A stretch of DNA of 36,373 bases from a virus. Location: UHGV virus genome UHGV-0172241; one strand, given 5' to 3'. Of the stretch, positions 13,183 to 20,318 are shown piece after piece. Under the pieces are notes generated by a model. That model was not told the DNA's origin and made no database searches. It saw nothing but the letters and a program-made list of their open reading frames with translations. Positions within the stretch are counted from its first letter, which is position 1. Each line of letters begins with the position of its first letter. A program made the translations under genes and the position numbers.

Positions 13183-13329
13183 TGACACAATTTCTAATAA
13201 CAGAGATAAAACACGGGCAAGAAACGTTTGTCGATATAACTAAGCCGCACGATAACGAGACATACACACTTGTAGAGGCAGAGAATGCAGAAGATGCGAG
13301 ACGTAAATATGAGGAGGGCTACAATGATT
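13183..13329 (+). CDS. small ORF (48 aa, GTG start)
   Basis: Hand-derived. Weak RBS AGGAAG. Confidence 0.25.
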
Positions 13330-13506
13330 AAACGTATTTTAAAGGTATGGTTTACTATCGCAATGTATGAACTAGGTAAGTGGATTGGTAGAGAGTTGTA
13401 TTACAAGTTGAGTGCTAATGATGAGGTGGATATTGCGCTAAACGACTATGCGAGAATAACAGATCAGTATGACTTGGATGAAATAAAGAAGGTGTTTATA
13501 GAATGA
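13324..13506 (+). CDS. small membrane protein (about 60 aa)
   Basis: RBS GAGGAGGG upstream of the ATG at about 13324. The track ORF is 13285..13506. Hydrophobic helix. Confidence 0.45.
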   Translation: MIKRILKVWFTIAMYELGKWIGRELYYKLSANDEVDIALNDYARITDQYDLDEIKKVFIE

Positions 13507-13631
13507 TGTGGTTAGTCATAGCTATTATATTGTTAGTAATACTTGTATTCGGCTGCATGTTAGAACAAAACGAGTTAAAGCACAAGATAGAGATGAAAGA
13601 ATATGAAATCGAAGTGTTAAGAGATAAGCTA
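13503..13631 (+). CDS. small membrane peptide (about 42 aa)
   Basis: ATGA overlap with the previous gene. Hand-translated MMWLVIAILLLVILVFGCML... The exact end is uncertain. Confidence 0.3.
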
Positions 13632-13648
13632 AAAAACGGAGGGTCATT

Positions 13649-14065
13649 ATGATAGTTATTCAAAAGCATGACATCAAGAAGCTTGAAGACTACATAAAGA
13701 ATATAGAGGAATACCGCAAAGAATTTCTGATGCGTGGATATGAGTTAATGGAAAACCACGAGCCAGAGAATGTAGGTGCTGGCAAGAGTAATTTACCGGG
13801 AAATCCTATTGAGAGAGAGACGGTTAAGAAGTTGAGTGATAATAGATATGTAATGCTGCGCAACGTGGTCAAAGGTGTAGATAAGCTTATATTTGAAGCT
13901 GACGAAGATACTAAAGACTTAATACGATTAAGATACTGGGAGTGTCCTATTGGATGCTACGAATGGGAAGACATCGCTAACTACTTTGGTATTAGTAAAA
14001 CGAGTGTATTAAGACGTAGAGATGCGATGATTAGTAGGTTAGCCGAGTTTATAGGATACGTATAG
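13649..14065 (+). CDS. rinA: RinA/ArpU-family late-gene transcriptional activator
   Basis: 138 aa, immediately upstream of terS. The C-terminal ...ISKTSVLRRRDAMISRLAEFIG region is a sigma-70 region-4-like HTH typical of the RinA family. Confidence 0.7.
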   Translation: MIVIQKHDIKKLEDYIKNIEEYRKEFLMRGYELMENHEPENVGAGKSNLPGNPIERETVKKLSDNRYVMLRNVVKGVDKLIFEADEDTKDLIRLRYWECPIGCYEWEDIANYFGISKTSVLRRRDAMISRLAEFIGYV

Positions 14066-14090
14066 CGGACTTTTGAGGTATGTAAGTCCG
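14066..14090 (+). terminator. hairpin after rinA (weak terminator or attenuator)
   Basis: Stem CGGACTT/AAGTCCG with an 11-nt loop and a poor U-tract (GTTTG). Confidence 0.35.
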
Positions 14091-14301
14091 GTTTGAAAAG
14101 GCTTATCATGGTATTGTGAACGAACCGCCGTAACAAGACGTTGTCTTATGGCAGAGACTTCACAAGCTAATGGTATTTTTAGTTTATATGTTCGTCTCCT
14201 AATAAATTATGTTTAACTCCTATTAAGCTATTCGTGAGCAAACACGAGTAGCTTTTTAAATTTATAAAAAGATAATATCGTGAGAGTTGGTGGTAAATGA
14301 A

Positions 14302-14730
14302 ATGGGCAGAAGAACATTATATGAAAAATTAGATATAAAAGATAAACTAGATCTTGTTGAGGGATGGAAACGTGATGGTCTCACAGACGAACAAATAGCG
14401 CGAAATTTTGGCGTTAATTTTAAAACGGTTATGAAATGGAAAGAAGACCACTCGGAGTTTATGGAGGCCATAAAAAAGGGCAAAGAAGTTTCTGATTATG
14501 AATTAGAAAACGCATTGCATAAGAGAGCTACAGGCTACTACTACGAAGAAGAAACAGTCACTAATGCAGGTAAGGTTGTCAAAGTTAAAAAGTACGAGCA
14601 TGCTAACCCTACGTCACTTATATTTGCACTTAAAAACAGATTGCCGCACAAATACAGAGATAAAGTAGAACAGGAAATCACAAACCGTAACTTCGAAATT
14701 AAAATAGGTGATTATGATGACGAAAGTTAA
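14302..14730 (+). CDS. terS: terminase small subunit
   Basis: Position immediately before terL. An HTH-like N-terminus (..GLTDEQIARNFGVNFKTVMKW..) is typical of TerS. The track ORF starts at 14287 (TTG). The ATG at 14302 is the more likely start. Confidence 0.8.
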   Translation: MGRRTLYEKLDIKDKLDLVEGWKRDGLTDEQIARNFGVNFKTVMKWKEDHSEFMEAIKKGKEVSDYELENALHKRATGYYYEEETVTNAGKVVKVKKYEHANPTSLIFALKNRLPHKYRDKVEQEITNRNFEIKIGDYDDES

Positions 14731-16174
14731 ACTGCGGTTTGACAATCCCGCTAAAGTATTCAATCGTAATATATTTGATGTACTGTTCGATTACGATAAC
14801 TTTACTGAAGTGCATTATGGTGGTGGTTCAAGTGGTAAATCGCACGGGGTTATACAAAAAGTTGTGCTTAAAGCATTGAAAGATTGGAAGTATCCTAGAC
14901 GTATATTGTGGCTTAGAAAAGTTCAGTCTACAATTAAAGATAGTTTGTTCGAAGATGTGAAAGCATGTTTAATAAACTTTGGGATTTGGGATATGTGTCT
15001 TTGGAATAAGACTGATAACAAAGTAGTGTTGCCAAACGGCGCAGTTTTTTTGTTTAAAGGATTGGATAACCCAGAGAAAATAAAGTCGATTAAAGGTATA
15101 TCAGACATAGTGATGGAAGAAGCGTCTGAATTCACATTGAATGATTACACACAGTTGACATTGCGTTTGAGAGAACGCAAACACATCAACAAACAAATAT
15201 TCTTGATGTTTAACCCGGTTTCTAAATTGAACTGGGTTTATAAGTATTTCTTTGAGCATGATGAACCGATGGAAAATGTCATGATTAGACAATCTAGTTA
15301 TCGAGATAATAAGTTTCTTGATGAGATGACGCGTCAAAACTTAGAGTTGTTAGCAAATCGTAACCCTGCTTATTACAAAATATATGCTTTAGGAGAATTT
15401 GCGACACTTGATAAATTAGTTTTTCCTAAGTATAAAAAAAGACTGATTAACAAACAAGAGTTACTACATTTGCCCTCTTATTTCGGAATAGATTTCGGTT
15501 ATGTCAATGATCCTAGTGCGTTTGTTCATGTAAAAGTTGATACAGAAAATAAAAACCTCTACATTGTGGAAGAATATGTAAAAAAAGGTATGCTAAACAA
15601 CGAGATAGCCGACGTTATAAAAAATCTGGGATACTCAAAAGAAGTTATAACGGGGGATAGTGCAGAACAAAAAAGTATAGCAGAGATTAGTAATCACGGC
15701 ATATCACGTATTAGACCGGCTTTAAAAGGTAAAGATAGTATAATGGCTGGCATACAATTCCTTAGTCAATTCGATATCGTTATAGATGAACGTTGCTATA
15801 AAACTCTAGAGGAATTCGACAATTACACTTGGAAAAAAGATAAAAAAACAGAAGAATATTATAACGAACCCGTTGACACATACAATCACTGTGTAACAGG
15901 AGATACATTGATTAACACTACATCTGGAGCTAAGCCAATAAAAGAATTGGTAGGCACAGAAGGTAGTGTTTTTTGTTATGACGAAATAAATAAAGAAAAA
16001 GTAACGTCTAAATATTTTGATGTGCGTAAGACGAGAGAACAAGCTCTAGTATTCGAAATAGAAACGGAGAGTGGCAAGAAATTTAAAGCTACTAGTGATC
16101 ACTTAGTGTTAACCAAAGACGGTTGGAAGATGCTGAAAGAGCTGAATGTAAATGACGAAATAATAAAAGTTTAA
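14708..16174 (+). CDS. terL: terminase large subunit N-terminal part (N-extein 14708..15889) fused to an intein N-terminal splicing domain (15890..16171), closed by an in-frame TAA
   Basis: ATPase Walker A motif GGGSSGKS is present. The nuclease-region motif ...EPVDTYNH is followed by the intein block A CVTGDTLINTTSG and block B ATSDHLVLT. Confidence 0.85.
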   Translation: MIMMTKVKLRFDNPAKVFNRNIFDVLFDYDNFTEVHYGGGSSGKSHGVIQKVVLKALKDWKYPRRILWLRKVQSTIKDSLFEDVKACLINFGIWDMCLWNKTDNKVVLPNGAVFLFKGLDNPEKIKSIKGISDIVMEEASEFTLNDYTQLTLRLRERKHINKQIFLMFNPVSKLNWVYKYFFEHDEPMENVMIRQSSYRDNKFLDEMTRQNLELLANRNPAYYKIYALGEFATLDKLVFPKYKKRLINKQELLHLPSYFGIDFGYVNDPSAFVHVKVDTENKNLYIVEEYVKKGMLNNEIADVIKNLGYSKEVITGDSAEQKSIAEISNHGISRIRPALKGKDSIMAGIQFLSQFDIVIDERCYKTLEEFDNYTWKKDKKTEEYYNEPVDTYNHCVTGDTLINTTSGAKPIKELVGTEGSVFCYDEINKEKVTSKYFDVRKTREQALVFEIETESGKKFKATSDHLVLTKDGWKMLKELNVNDEIIKV

Positions 16175-16892
16175 GAGGTGTCGTTAATGCAAAAGTACGT
16201 TTATTTCAATGGTATGAAATTCACTAGAGATGAAAATACAGGGTATTATCTCAATTCTACTAATAGAATTAGATTACATCGGTATGTATGGGAGCAAACA
16301 CACGGGAAAATTCCTAAAGGCTATCATATCCATCATATTGACGGGGATAAAAGAAATAACGATATTTCTAACCTAATGATGTTAACGCCTACCGAACATC
16401 TCTCATATCATGGGAATAAGCGCGCTAGTGAAAATTACGAGACAATAGTGAAAAATCTCGATTTAAATGCGCGTCCTAAAGCGAACGAATGGCATGCCTC
16501 AGAAAAAGGTAGAGAATGGCACAAAAAACACTACAACGATATGAAAACTAAATTACATAAAGAAACGGAGTTTAAATGCGAACAATGTAACAAACGCTTT
16601 ATTGCAATTAACAATGGTAAGAATAGATTTTGTTCAAATAATTGTAAATCTAAATGGCGTAGAGTTAATGGTTTGGATGATGTTATTAAGGAGTGTGTGT
16701 ATTGTGAAGGAAAATTTACTTCAAACAAATACAGCAAAAGAAAAACATGCAGTAGAAGATGCGCTAACAAACAAAGAACCGAAGACAGAAAAAATAAAGA
16801 GTATCAAGTTTCATAGTATTCAAGATGTTTACAATATGGAAGTTGAAAAATATCATAACTACGCTGTTGAAGGCGGGTTAATTATTCATAAT
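15890..16892 (+). other. intein (Hint N- and C-terminal splicing blocks with an embedded HNH endonuclease) inserted in the terL nuclease motif. 1003 nt, not a multiple of 3
   Basis: N-terminal Cys1 (tgt at 15890-15892). C-terminal ...VYNMEVEKYHNYAVEGGLIIHN (ending at 16892) followed by the +1 Cys of the extein motif CIDALRY. Removing 15890..16892 restores the canonical TerL motif DTYNH-C-IDALRY. Confidence 0.75.
16187..16816 (+). CDS. HNH homing endonuclease encoded inside the intein, with its own RBS
   Basis: Strong SD AAGAGGTG (16173-16180) 6 nt before the ATG at 16187. HNH motif ...HIHHIDGDKRNNDISNLMMLTPTEH... and C-terminal Cys clusters (CEQC...C..NC, CVYC...C..RC). Confidence 0.8.
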   Translation: MQKYVYFNGMKFTRDENTGYYLNSTNRIRLHRYVWEQTHGKIPKGYHIHHIDGDKRNNDISNLMMLTPTEHLSYHGNKRASENYETIVKNLDLNARPKANEWHASEKGREWHKKHYNDMKTKLHKETEFKCEQCNKRFIAINNGKNRFCSNNCKSKWRRVNGLDDVIKECVYCEGKFTSNKYSKRKTCSRRCANKQRTEDRKNKEYQVS

Positions 16893-16994
16893 TGCATAGA
16901 TGCACTTCGATATAGCGTTGAAATGTTAATGATAAACAATAAAAAACAAAAGAAAAAAGCTAGTGATTTACGAAGAATAAAAAATATGTTTTAA
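16602..16994 (+). CDS. terL: intein C-terminal splicing block (about 16795..16892) plus TerL C-extein (16893..16991), in a +1 frame relative to the HNH ORF. No canonical start codon near the block
   Basis: The frame-0 ORF contains ...IKSIKFHSIQDVYNMEVEKYHNYAVEGGLIIHN|CIDALRYSVEMLMINNKK... Upstream of about 16790 this frame merely overlaps the HNH ORF. Confidence 0.5.
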   Translation: MQLTMVRIDFVQIIVNLNGVELMVWMMLLRSVCIVKENLLQTNTAKEKHAVEDALTNKEPKTEKIKSIKFHSIQDVYNMEVEKYHNYAVEGGLIIHNCIDALRYSVEMLMINNKKQKKKASDLRRIKNMF

Positions 16995-17005
16995 GGAGTG
17001 AGTAA

Positions 17006-18457
17006 ATGACTTTATACACAGTTGGTAACGTACAAGAAAAGTTTTCTCCAACAGCAAACGACGATTTTGTCGTCAATGATTTAGATGAGTTGTTTAAAGA
17101 CGATTATATAAGAAACTTGATTAGCAGACATAAGACAGAGCAGCTACCTAGATTGGAAATGTTAGAGGCGTATTACTTAAATAGAAACACTGACATTTTA
17201 ACTGGAGAGCGCCGTTTGAATAACAACGGAGACAAAGCAGACCACAGAGCAGTACATAACTACGCTAGATACGTTTCTAGATTTATAGTTGGTTATCTGA
17301 CCGGGAACCCTATCACAATCACGCACACGAACAACAAAACAAACAACAAGATTATTGAACTCAATGACAAGAACGACGCTGATGAAATAAACAGCGACTT
17401 AGCATTGAATTTGTCTATATACGGACGTGCATACGAGATTGTATACAGAGACATGAAAGATAATGACACATTTAGAGTGTTAGACCCTAAAAGTACGTTC
17501 GTTGTCTACGATAGCTCGTTAGACAAACGTGTTATAGCGGGTGTTAGATATTATGAAAAGTCAGATGCAAACAATATACCTACGAGCTATATAGAAGTTT
17601 ACACAGAACAAGACATTTATTATTTGCAAGTCAAAGACGGTTCTATTGTAGTAAATGATGTAGTTAAGCACTTCTACAATGAAGTACCTGTTATAGAATA
17701 CTTGAACGACCAATTCAAACAAGGAGATTTCGAGAACGTTATTTCTTTAATTGATTTATATGACGCCAGCCAATCTGATACAGCTAACTATATGTCAGAT
17801 ACTAACGATGCAATGTTAGCATTGATTGGTAATGCTGATTTAGACGGAGAAGATGCGAAAGCGTTTAGAGATGCAAACATGATCCACATCAAACCTTCGA
17901 TAAACGCTAATGGTGGAGAAGGCAAAGCTGACGCTAAGTATATTTATAAACAATATGATGTTTCTGGTTCCGAAGCATATAAAAAGAGATTGCAAAATGA
18001 CATTCACAAATACACAAATACACCGGATTTAAACGATGAAAATTTCAGCGGTATTCAATCCGGCGAGTCAATGAAATACAAATTGTTTGGACTTGAACAA
18101 GTTAGAGCAATAAAAGAGAGATTGTTTAAAAAAGGGTTGATGAAACGATACAAGCTACTTCTAAACAAAGTGAATATAGAAAGCTTGGAAAATCACGATT
18201 ATTCAGAGTTAAACATTGTATTCACTCCTAATCTACCGAAATCACTAAAAGAATCAGTTGAGATTTTCAACGATTTAAATGGTGGCGTTTCAGAAGAAAC
18301 AAGATTAGGTGTACTTGATATAATCAAAAACCCTAAAGAAGAAATGAAGAAAATGGAAAAAGAAAAAGAAAAGCAAATACAATCCCGTGACAACAGCGAA
18401 TACAGCAATCTAACAAACGATAACAAAGAAGATGTGAATATAGATGTCGAAGAGTGA
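17006..18457 (+). CDS. portal protein (SPP1 gp6-like)
   Basis: 483 aa directly after terL. RBS AAGGAGTGAG. Acidic C-terminus typical of portals. Confidence 0.85.
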   Translation: MTLYTVGNVQEKFSPTANDDFVVNDLDELFKDDYIRNLISRHKTEQLPRLEMLEAYYLNRNTDILTGERRLNNNGDKADHRAVHNYARYVSRFIVGYLTGNPITITHTNNKTNNKIIELNDKNDADEINSDLALNLSIYGRAYEIVYRDMKDNDTFRVLDPKSTFVVYDSSLDKRVIAGVRYYEKSDANNIPTSYIEVYTEQDIYYLQVKDGSIVVNDVVKHFYNEVPVIEYLNDQFKQGDFENVISLIDLYDASQSDTANYMSDTNDAMLALIGNADLDGEDAKAFRDANMIHIKPSINANGGEGKADAKYIYKQYDVSGSEAYKKRLQNDIHKYTNTPDLNDENFSGIQSGESMKYKLFGLEQVRAIKERLFKKGLMKRYKLLLNKVNIESLENHDYSELNIVFTPNLPKSLKESVEIFNDLNGGVSEETRLGVLDIIKNPKEEMKKMEKEKEKQIQSRDNSEYSNLTNDNKEDVNIDVEE

Positions 18458-19409
18458 TGCTCAATGGTGGGAATTAGCTCAAAAAGGGATTGTACAAGAA
18501 GTAAAACGTGATAAAGCGGCAATTAAAGACATAGAAATATTATTAATGACCATGATTAAAGAGATAGAGAAAGAAATAATGTCATTCTATGCTAAGTATG
18601 CGAATCATGAAGGCTTGAACATCAAAGAAGCTAAAAAGAAAGTTGATAGCTTTGACGTAGAAGCATTCAAAAACAAGGCTAAGCAGTATGTAGAAACCAA
18701 AGACTTTAGCGATAAGGCTAACAAAGAACTGAAGAAGTACAACACAAAGATGTATGTATCTAGAGAAGAATTGTTAAAAGGCCAATTAAACGGGATGATA
18801 GATTATTTTACAGCCGAAACAGAGAACAAACTATCTGATTACATGCACGATGCTGTAGAGAGGGAAATAAAGCGCCAAGCAGGGATATTAGGCGACAATG
18901 TAGAAATAACACCACAGAAAGTAACGTCTATTGTTAACGCTGACTTTGGCAATACAACATGGTCTAAGCGTTTATGGTCAAACATGGATGAATTACGCGA
19001 CGATGTACAACGTATTGCATCACACGTTGTATTGAGAGGTAGACACCCGAACGAATTTGTTTCTGAACTTAGGAAGAAACACGATGTCGCTACATCAGAT
19101 GCTAAGCGTTTGTTAATAACAGAAGCAGCAAGGGTTCAAACATTAGCGCAAAAAGAGTATTACACTGCTACTTTAGGCGAAGATGCAAGATATCAATTTG
19201 TTGCTAAAGTGGATGAAAAGACATCTAAAACTTGTCTTAGCCATAATGGCAATATCTATAAAGTTAAAGATATGACACCAGGATTAAACGCACCTCCACT
19301 ACATCCACACTGTAGATCTTCAACGATACCTTTCGCACCTACTAGAAGAAAAGACTTTATAAACTCTAGAAAAGGACGCTACACAGGCGCTAAGGTAACA
19401 ATAAAATGA
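18444..19409 (+). CDS. minor head / head morphogenesis protein (SPP1 gp7 / Mu F-like)
   Basis: C-terminal ...NAPPLHPHCRSS... motif characteristic of the gp7/Mu F family. Confidence 0.8.
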   Translation: MSKSDAQWWELAQKGIVQEVKRDKAAIKDIEILLMTMIKEIEKEIMSFYAKYANHEGLNIKEAKKKVDSFDVEAFKNKAKQYVETKDFSDKANKELKKYNTKMYVSREELLKGQLNGMIDYFTAETENKLSDYMHDAVEREIKRQAGILGDNVEITPQKVTSIVNADFGNTTWSKRLWSNMDELRDDVQRIASHVVLRGRHPNEFVSELRKKHDVATSDAKRLLITEAARVQTLAQKEYYTATLGEDARYQFVAKVDEKTSKTCLSHNGNIYKVKDMTPGLNAPPLHPHCRSSTIPFAPTRRKDFINSRKGRYTGAKVTIK

Positions 19410-19727
19410 AACTAGAATTAAAAGTTAAAGTGAAAGGCAATAACATTGCTTATTATGATGAATCAAATAAGATGTGGAGGATTGTTAATATTGAGAAGCA
19501 ACGAATCATATCTAAAAGAAATAGCTAGAGAATTAAAGTTAATAAGAGTTGAATTGCAAAAGCAAAACGAACCAACGGTAAAAGAAGATAAAACGAAAGA
19601 AAACAAAACAAGTAAGTATATATAAAACTACCAAATTGGTGGTTATTTTTTATGTCCAAAACGTGCTGACGACGTTAAAAGCTCGTATGGAAAAACAGTC
19701 GACAGACTATAAACGGGGGTATATCTC

Positions 19728-20318
19728 ATGACAGAAGAAACAAAAAGTAACGTTACTGAAGAAACAGAAGTAAAAGAGCAAACACAAGAAAATCAAGACG
19801 AAACTTCAAACGATAAAACAAAGCAGTCAAAAGATACTGATAAAACATTTACACAAGAAGAAGTTAACCAAATGATTAAAGACCGTGTTGCTCGTGAACA
19901 AAAGAAAGCGGAAGAAAAAGCAGAAGAAGCCGCAAAACTAGCTAAGATGAACAAAGACCAAAAAGCAGAGTATGAACGCGAAAAAATGGAAAAAGAGCTG
20001 CAACAATTACGTGCAGAAAAAGCGACAAATGAAATGCGTTCAGAAGCTCGCGCTATGTTGAAAGAAAAGAATATCGATGCTAGTGATGAACTGTTAAATT
20101 TTGTTGTGAAAGAAGATGCAAACGGAACTAAAGAAAGTGTTGATGCATTCGTTGATTTGTTAAATGGAATGGTAAAAACACAAGTCAAAGAAGCGTTGCG
20201 TCAAGAATCGCCGAAAGCTTTCACAACAAGCGGATTGACTAAAGAAGATATTTTAAACATAAAAGATGATAGCAAACGTCAAATAGCTATCGCTCAAAAT
20301 AGACAATTATTTAATTAA
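19728..20318 (+). CDS. scaffolding protein
   Basis: Highly charged, Glu/Lys-rich coiled-coil 196-aa protein immediately upstream of the major capsid gene. RBS AACGGGGG. Confidence 0.7.
   Translation: MTEETKSNVTEETEVKEQTQENQDETSNDKTKQSKDTDKTFTQEEVNQMIKDRVAREQKKAEEKAEEAAKLAKMNKDQKAEYEREKMEKELQQLRAEKATNEMRSEARAMLKEKNIDASDELLNFVVKEDANGTKESVDAFVDLLNGMVKTQVKEALRQESPKAFTTSGLTKEDILNIKDDSKRQIAIAQNRQLFN

Follow-up and report, generated by a model that had tools for sequence, protein, structure and literature searches.

Probable natural splitting of a terminase intein around an endonuclease gene in a Staphylococcus prophage

The terminase large subunit (TerL) gene in the virus genome UHGV-0172241 (36,373 nucleotides, nt; this whole stretch is called the window below), a prophage of Staphylococcus (lugdunensis type), contains an intein that cannot be read in one frame. 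The question raised by this locus is what the change of frame means, since the intein's N-terminal portion (IntN) is followed by an HNH endonuclease gene and the C-terminal splicing block (IntC) is read in the +1 frame relative to that gene, with a run of six A (the A6 run) at the boundary. The original prediction had considered a true split intein joined by a +1 frameshift, a sequencing error or frameshift mutation, and a decaying intein. Its description of the sequence holds: the intein runs from the TGT of Cys1 at 15890 to the AAT of the last Asn at 16892, which is 1003 nt or 3n+1, and is followed by the TGC of the +1 Cys (16893-16895); the HNH frame stops at 16816; the block IKSIKFHSIQDVYNMEVEKYHNYAVEGGLIIHN|C lies in the +1 frame; and skipping one A of the run at 16789-16794 joins ...EDRK to IKSIK.... 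We consider it probable that this TerL gene is a 'fractured gene' (Dassa et al. 2009, NAR 37:2560; PMC2677866), the term for split inteins with a free-standing homing-endonuclease gene between their halves. In our judgement, the change of frame at the A6 run likely marks the ordinary boundary between two overlapping genes rather than a frameshift, an error of sequencing or decay.

Both parts of the intein have the features of a class 1 splicing domain. IntN scores 41.3 bits against TIGR01445 intein_Nterm (cutoff 24.5), covers positions 7-93 of the Pfam Intein_splicing profile and can be aligned with residues 4-95 of the Ssp DnaB mini-intein (1mi8). The IntC block scores 26.6 bits against TIGR01443 intein_Cterm (cutoff 15.6), covers positions 124-155 of the same Pfam profile, and is colinear with the natural IntC of Npu DnaE, which has 36 amino acids (aa) (4lx3_B, residues 7-36; weak E-value of 0.013). 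Class 1 residues were found on the N side (Cys1 at 15890, T68-S-D-H71) and on the C side (...DVYNMEVEKYHNYAVEGGLIIHN|C, with His-Asn and then Cys+1), and Cys1, TxxH, His-Asn and Cys+1 are all intact. The N-extein matches Pfam Terminase_3 and Terminase_3C as well as the NCBIfam model of PBSX-family TerL (TIGR01547, 349 bits), and the DNA from 14708 to 15892 is 81% identical to a phi11-type TerL gene. Joined together, the two exteins give a protein of 425 aa that aligns without gaps and with 92.2% identity to an intein-less staphylococcal TerL (P0064), and the extein junction DTYNH|CIDALRYSVE is seamless relative to both P0064 and the phi11 TerL. The insertion site of the mini-intein is the conserved DTYNH|CIDALRY of the TerL nuclease domain. 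Because the C-extein carries the conserved CxDAxRY motif of that domain, packaging would be expected to need ligation, or at least association, of the two halves.

The coding parts of the element are under purifying selection. The ratio of nonsynonymous to synonymous substitution rates (dN/dS) between the window and its Staphylococcus relatives is 0.01-0.19 for IntN, HNH and IntC, where synonymous sites are close to or at saturation, and it reaches up to 0.28 between relatives; over all comparisons dS goes from 0.4 to saturation. Purifying selection on the splicing residues argues for splicing of the halves over their mere association. In a comparison of the window with one relative (L017, IMGVR_UViG_2917485323_000006), dN was 0.80 in the N-extein and 0.31 in the intein; the unit of intein and HNH gene has moved between TerL lineages that are quite different.

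The HNH gene has the properties of a gene in its own right. Its protein matches the Pfam family HNH_3 (PF13392) with 67.7 bits (cutoff 24.8; E = 6.5e-19) over residues 32-74 and bears CxxC zinc-finger motifs in its C-terminal part. Entries of the nr database from genomes of Staphylococcus sp. HMSC and S. lugdunensis list the identical protein as an 'HNH endonuclease'; a sequence search of PDB returned no match for it, and it has no family in NCBIfam. In the window, IntN and HNH share one frame and are parted only by a TAA codon, and a Shine-Dalgarno (SD) sequence of the HNH gene, GAGGTG (16175-16180), lies inside the 12-nt spacer (GAGGTGTCGTTA, 16175-16186). As at this TAA codon (16172-16174), IntN ends in a stop codon in all 39 split loci that were scored. 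The frame offset from IntN to HNH among these loci is variable, being 0, 1 and 2 in 11, 19 and 9 of them, respectively, and the spacers of the relatives often carry a TATAAT box and an SD sequence. The variable frame and the spacer signals therefore show that HNH stands free as a gene, and that the element is not one open reading frame (ORF) that has been broken. Spacers of 45-52 nt with TATAAT-like boxes are present in three Staphylococcus relatives (L014, L015, L017); given its short spacer, the HNH gene of the window may be expressed by way of read-through transcription and coupled translation. Kala and colleagues are said to have described, in 2014, an HNH protein as an accessory of cos packaging. 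We rejected this role for the present gene, which sits within the intein and is polymorphic between near-identical alleles.

How would IntC and the C-extein then be translated? The claim that the IntC block has no start nearby stands for the 29 codons directly upstream, among which there is no ATG, GTG or TTG, but no stop closes this frame as far back as 16602, and it contains GTG 16704, 10 nt after an AAGGAG, as well as ATG 16677 and ATG 16680. The anti-SD duplex at GTG 16704 (-11.1 kcal/mol) is stronger than those at the HNH start (-9.6 kcal/mol) and the portal start (-8.3 kcal/mol), and GTG 16704 has the best combination of SD sequence and start among all candidates in the IntC frame. All Staphylococcus-type relatives have a GTG here, at -42 codons counted from the YNMEV Tyr. 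Most of them also have an SD-like GGAG 10 nt upstream of it (L015 and L016 do not), and some use the G-ending codons AGG GAG at the SD sequence. The upstream ATGATG is shut off by a stop codon in six relatives (L015, L016, L017, L019, L020, L094), which are left with the conserved GTG, and some also with another, lying three codons upstream of it or at -23.

The same pattern was observed across the family, for which we used 43 non-redundant loci that remained after deduplication (under 80% nt identity). In 42 of them, no stop interrupts the +1 frame over the 26 or more codons that precede IntC, where synonymous recoding of HNH would lead one to expect 24.3 such loci (joint p of about 1e-13 if the loci were independent), and in a control on the upstream part of HNH the +1-frame stops were not depleted (306 observed, 280 expected). 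When a fixed region was scanned, with the third frame as control, the best SD energy at in-frame starts averaged -9.7 kcal/mol versus -5.7 kcal/mol in the null (Fisher 9e-15), and the effect in the third frame was much smaller (-6.3 versus -4.8 kcal/mol). Of the members whose upstream frame is closed, four (L051, L074, L003, L039) possess an ordinary ATG and an SD sequence beside IntC, and one (L073) has none in the scan. The enrichment of SD sequences and starts, the conserved GTG and the members with an ATG at IntC together argue that independent initiation is the way in which this family expresses IntC, and in the window the most likely start would be GTG 16704. The 96-aa ORF from this codon is in RefSeq as a 'hypothetical protein' (WP_242247883.1); elsewhere the ORF is called with 104 aa from ATG 16680 (WP_277951033.1), with 52 aa from ATG 16836, or not at all. 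In one assembly (L005, GCA_023712745.1), an 88-aa 'Intein_splicing' ORF is called in place of the 486-aa TerL(N)-IntN, and the IntC ORF is given 52 aa from ATG 16836.

Pairs of alleles with and without the endonuclease cassette place its ends. Three such pairs (L031/L045, L076/L072, L103/L102), with flanks that are 95-97% identical at the nt level and an insert of 610-650 nt, show that the endonuclease gene has invaded or been lost at one fixed position, which spans about -700 to -45 nt relative to the Tyr codon of YNMEV. The insert starts right behind the last strand of IntN and adds one to three codons and a stop, followed by the start of the HNH ORF; in one of the alleles (L072) there is a promoter-like box between the IntN stop and the HNH start. 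Its right end lies 15-18 codons ahead of the Tyr of YNMEV, so that the +1-frame leader is contained in the insert and the last HNH codons continue into IntC DNA. By homology with these pairs, the cassette of the window (~620 nt) would extend from about 16172 to 16790, and the A6 run would simply be its right-hand junction. The coordinates of all parts of the locus are collected in Table 1.

Table 1. Parts of the TerL-intein-HNH locus, in positions of the window
Feature	Position	Strand	Description
TerL N-extein	14714..15889	+	392 aa from ATG 14714 (alternative start GTG 14708); C-terminal end ...EPVDTYNH
IntN	15890..16171	+	94 aa, CVTGDTLI...TSDH...NDEIIKV; block A = Cys1, block B = T68-x-x-H71
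TAA ending the TerL(N)-IntN ORF (16172-16174) and 12-nt spacer	16172..16186	+	5' end of the endonuclease cassette
Free-standing HNH_3 homing-endonuclease gene	16187..16816	+	ATG 16187, 209 aa, TAG 16814-16816
AAGGAG, putative SD sequence of the IntC ORF	16688..16693	+	Lys-Glu codons of HNH, directly before CxxC motif
N-terminal extension of the IntC ORF	16704..16793	+	30 codons from proposed start GTG 16704; +1 frame, overlaps HNH 3' end
A6 run	16789..16794	+	Junction of HNH cassette and IntC coding sequence; no role assigned
IntC splicing block	16794..16892	+	33 aa; blocks F and G, penultimate His, terminal Asn
TerL C-extein	16893..16994	+	CIDALRYSVEMLMINNKKQKKKASDLRRIKNMF; 33 aa, CIDALRY...MF; TAA 16992-16994 included

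In the model that we propose, the cassette would sit in the endonuclease-insertion loop of a mini-intein. Its 5' end would give the stop codon for TerL(N)-IntN and the ribosome-binding site for HNH, and its 3' end would give an SD sequence and a start in the +1 frame, opening a third ORF over the last ~110 nt of HNH. Three proteins are thus predicted, namely TerL(N)-IntN of 486 aa, HNH of 209 aa, and the extended IntC-TerL(C) of 96 aa, of which the first and the last would associate through IntN and IntC and trans-splice to a TerL of 425 aa with the predicted splice-junction peptide ...EPVDTYNHCIDALR / TEEYYNEPVDTYNHCIDALR. Trans-splicing is supported indirectly by the purifying selection described above and by the occurrence of the same architecture in the phages BL3 and CL2, and we infer it from these.

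We traced the element in other assemblies and in more distant phages. The exact HNH protein occurs on 14 contigs, and the nine loci that were fetched (two NCBI assemblies and seven independent Logan sequencing runs) are all identical to the window in the TerL-HNH-IntC DNA, including the A6 run. One of them (L009, ERR3219615; aligned to 13187-19816 of the window) is identical through 17028 and has 193 mismatches from 17029 on, in the portal gene. It is a different phage with the same TerL module, and a mosaic recombination joint lies immediately downstream of the TerL/HNH module. In megablast and blastn searches of the intein region against phages and plasmids, no close phage carrying the intein was found. 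The only hits, short matches to IntC, led to Brochothrix phage BL3, Lactobacillus phage CL2, a plasmid-prophage of C. perfringens (pCQ92) and a plasmid of Fructilactobacillus (F. ixorae), which all have the order TerL(N)-IntN, HNH, IntC-TerL(C), with only a remnant of HNH in BL3. Both BL3 and CL2 were deposited as phage genomes with named hosts. In BL3 (L001, 2298-2607), the HNH gene is cut down to a zinc-finger remnant of 40 codons (2298-2420), and the IntC-TerL(C) ORF has been annotated as gp3 (2311-2607); it starts at an ATGATG that derives from HNH Asp-Asp codons in the +1 frame. In CL2 (L002, 2490-2774), the IntC-TerL(C) ORF is not annotated in GenBank, and the deposited TerL is thus without its C-terminal nuclease motif.

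With an IntC alignment as query, 106 further loci were obtained from viral and genome collections. An HNH homologue is present in about 80 diverged Firmicutes loci (phages, prophages, metagenome-assembled genomes and genomes), and in all of these except three of the pCQ92 type (L003, L039, L073) IntC is in the +1 frame relative to the 3' end of HNH. Among the scored loci this offset is +1 in 37 of 39, and it is +2 in the pCQ92 type. Divergence of HNH within the family is deep (166-277 bits in tblastn, as compared with 435 bits for the self match). HNH is lacking in about a dozen loci, which are contiguous mini-inteins (L021, L031, L076, L101 and L103 among them). Some contiguous mini-inteins keep a part of the +1-frame leader as a linker (e.g., ...NPVQIDLTQGSLNFAK; L046/L053 versus L063/L106, and L088 versus L107), which suggests that HNH was deleted in frame there and a one-piece intein restored. 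In other members the HNH gene has an early stop (L109, from Limosilactobacillus gastricus) or matches in two frames (L051, L114), suggesting that the endonuclease is decaying while the split intein around it is otherwise intact; in L051, an ATG and an SD sequence have been acquired directly beside IntC.

The explanation closest to the original prediction is that a programmed +1 ribosomal frameshift or transcriptional slippage at the A6 run (AGA AAA AAT) fuses HNH to IntC-TerL(C), and that this fusion trans-splices. It has in its favor that one skipped A joins the frames at precisely the point where the IntC block begins, that the offset is +1 in nearly all family members, and that the 29 codons just ahead of the block are free of canonical starts. 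The run itself is not conserved, however: it has six or more bases at the junction in only 8 of 43 loci, 10 of the 43 are without a run of even four bases, and four Staphylococcus relatives (L017, L019, L020, L094) read AGAAAAGATAAAATCG there, with AGAAAAGAT at the A6 position and no A-run. Nor does the site look like a place of recoding, with an A-site codon (AAT) that is neither a stop nor rare, no evident stimulator, an HNH stop 20 nt downstream, and no SD-like sequence just upstream of 16789. A slip at the junction would need neither a +1 frame open for at least 26 codons upstream nor a selected SD sequence and start, and IntC has its own start beside it, with the upstream frame closed, in members with offset +1 (L051, L074) and in the pCQ92 type with offset +2. 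The long overlap, and a cassette that is inherited as one piece, account for the constant +1 offset. We therefore keep from that proposal the true split intein, the layout of which is conserved, and regard the slip on A6 as very improbable. A prfB-like +1 shift at the HNH stop was also rejected; this stop lies inside the IntC block, and the first strand of IntC would be out of frame. We give almost no credence to the view that the intein, with HNH inside it, is otherwise contiguous and is broken by a sequencing error in the homopolymer or by a frameshift mutation of recent date. Such an event would fit a length of 3n+1 and the common frame of IntN and HNH in the window, but it is refuted by the identical DNA in nine assemblies from separate projects, by the stop after IntN and the HNH gene with its own SD sequence and ATG, by the varying IntN-to-HNH frame, which implies that the element was never one ORF, and by the +1 relation common to loci with deeply diverged HNH genes.

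Decay of the intein, or a pseudogenised TerL in a defective prophage without a functional terminase, is also quite unlikely. The IntC ORF has no ATG near the splicing block, annotation pipelines differ on it (52, 96 or 104 aa, or nothing called), the promoter-like box of the relatives has been lost from the IntN-HNH spacer of the window, and HNH genes are decaying in some members, all of which could be taken as signs of it. Against this stand the low dN/dS values and the intact splicing residues, together with full-length prophage genes for integrase, helicase, TerS, portal, head, tape measure, holin and endolysin; the same TerL module beside a different portal gene in L009 argues for circulation among phages, and the same architecture is found in the isolated phages BL3 and CL2. 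A further alternative keeps the split intein but lets IntC start elsewhere (ATG 16677/16680, ATA 16794, or re-initiation at ATG 16836), or lets the halves associate without splicing. The versions of 104 aa (from ATG 16680) and 52 aa (from ATG 16836) in nr speak for it, and the equivalent ATGATG is the first start of the open frame in BL3, L035 and L099. We nevertheless consider it unlikely. The SD sequences of ATG 16677/16680 are weak (-3.8 kcal/mol), with a stop behind these codons in the six close relatives mentioned above. We rejected ATA 16794, which has no SD sequence (-2.0 kcal/mol) and is not a conserved codon (ATC in L015), and also re-initiation at ATG 16836 after the HNH stop, which would cost IntC its first two beta-strands (IKSIKFHSIQDVYN), and these every natural IntC, including that of Npu DnaE, has kept. 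Mere association is opposed by the strong purifying selection on the splicing residues.

Several points weigh against a split intein that is expressed from GTG 16704. The 43 loci are not phylogenetically independent, and the p-values given above are optimistic. The HNH residues of the window within the overlap cannot make +1-frame stops at all (P open = 1.0), so the argument from the open frame is based on the family, and the GTG and its purine-rich SD sequence follow in part from the conserved HNH motif (K/R)-E-C-x-Y-C-(G/E). All copies of the window's own lineage are identical, and purifying selection was measured only against relatives; likewise, the presence/absence polymorphism of the cassette is seen in alleles of relatives and not in the window's own lineage. 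The IntN-HNH spacer of the window is without the TATAAT box found in relatives. Finally, with ~113 nt of overlap and an extension of 30 aa, the locus exceeds the overlaps (6-69 bp) and IntC parts (33-54 aa) of Dassa et al., and it is a weakness that we infer both the use of GTG 16704 and trans-splicing from sequence.

A broader reading is possible but doubtful. The HNH cassette could be an autonomous, intein-targeting mobile element with a 'gene-splitting kit' that, across Firmicutes phages, turns TerL mini-inteins into split ones and also reverses the change. Its long overlap and leader could then be functional and not a passive by-product. The kit would consist of a stop, a promoter and a ribosome-binding site at the 5' end, and of a conserved +1-frame SD sequence, a start and a leader of ~30 codons in the zinc-finger coding region at the 3' end. 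If this were true, the overlap and leader may couple the supply of IntC, and with it the maturation of terminase, to translation of the endonuclease, or may tune trans-splicing.

The remainder of the prophage looks intact, as had been supposed, with full-length genes for integrase, replication, packaging, head, tail and lysis. Its integrase is a large serine recombinase (100-1482 of the window, minus strand), and the phi11-like late operon is complete, including a RinA-like gene, TerS (the small terminase subunit), portal, MuF, major head protein, a tape measure protein of 1218 aa, holin and endolysin. No tRNA genes were found in the window.

The analysis removes a false lead, as the A6 site would represent neither a recoding event nor a pseudogene, and it points to an IntC-TerL(C) ORF that several pipelines mis-annotate or miss (absent in CL2; a 'hypothetical protein' of 52, 96 or 104 aa in Staphylococcus). 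It would also add a large family of naturally split class 1 inteins (about 80 split loci, IntN of ~94 aa, IntC core of 33 aa) to the few natural split-intein families known, which are valued as protein-ligation tools. In the literature searched, with subscription journals outside coverage, we found no description of an HNH-bearing split TerL intein family.

The best-known split inteins, those of Npu and Ssp DnaE, resemble the present one in being class 1 inteins with Cys1 and Cys+1 that are split at the endonuclease-insertion loop. In contrast, the two halves of DnaE come from loci far apart, no endonuclease gene lies between them, and the DnaE IntC has its own ATG and no long extension. IntN has 94 aa here and about 102 aa in Npu.

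Contiguous mini-inteins in the XtmB/PBSX TerL proteins of Firmicutes prophages were listed by Novikova et al. 2016 (PMC4760082). The host protein family and the phylum are the same, and the window's intein family has contiguous members at the same site; however, those inteins are single ORFs without an endonuclease, whereas the copy in the window is broken by a stop, an HNH gene and a frame change. Inteins of actinobacteriophages with out-of-frame or antisense endonucleases, with TerL among the hosts, were reported by Gosselin, Arsenault and Gogarten (bioRxiv 10.1101/2025.01.02.630785). There, too, a free-standing endonuclease gene has invaded the endonuclease region of the intein in a frame different from that of the splicing domain, but the intein ORF is contiguous, with the endonuclease nested in another frame or strand, while here it is split in two.

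The closest likeness is to the fractured genes of Dassa et al., one of which is a phage terminase (PMC2677866). Both share the one-strand order of host(N)-IntN, a short spacer, the endonuclease gene and IntC-host(C), with the 3' end of the endonuclease gene overlapping the IntC ORF. The endonuclease is of the HNH_3 family (PF13392) here and Vsr-like or GIY-YIG in the published examples, a difference that describes these examples and does not define the arrangement. The host is a PBSX/phi11-type TerL of temperate Firmicutes phages here, as compared with a marine metagenomic replication gene or a gp17-type terminase there, and the overlap and extension are longer, as noted above. In the model of Dassa et al. 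(PMC2677866), the invading element donates an upstream stop and a downstream start. Unlike in their loci, the step of invasion or loss is documented directly here by the near-identical alleles with and without the cassette, which are direct comparative support for that model.

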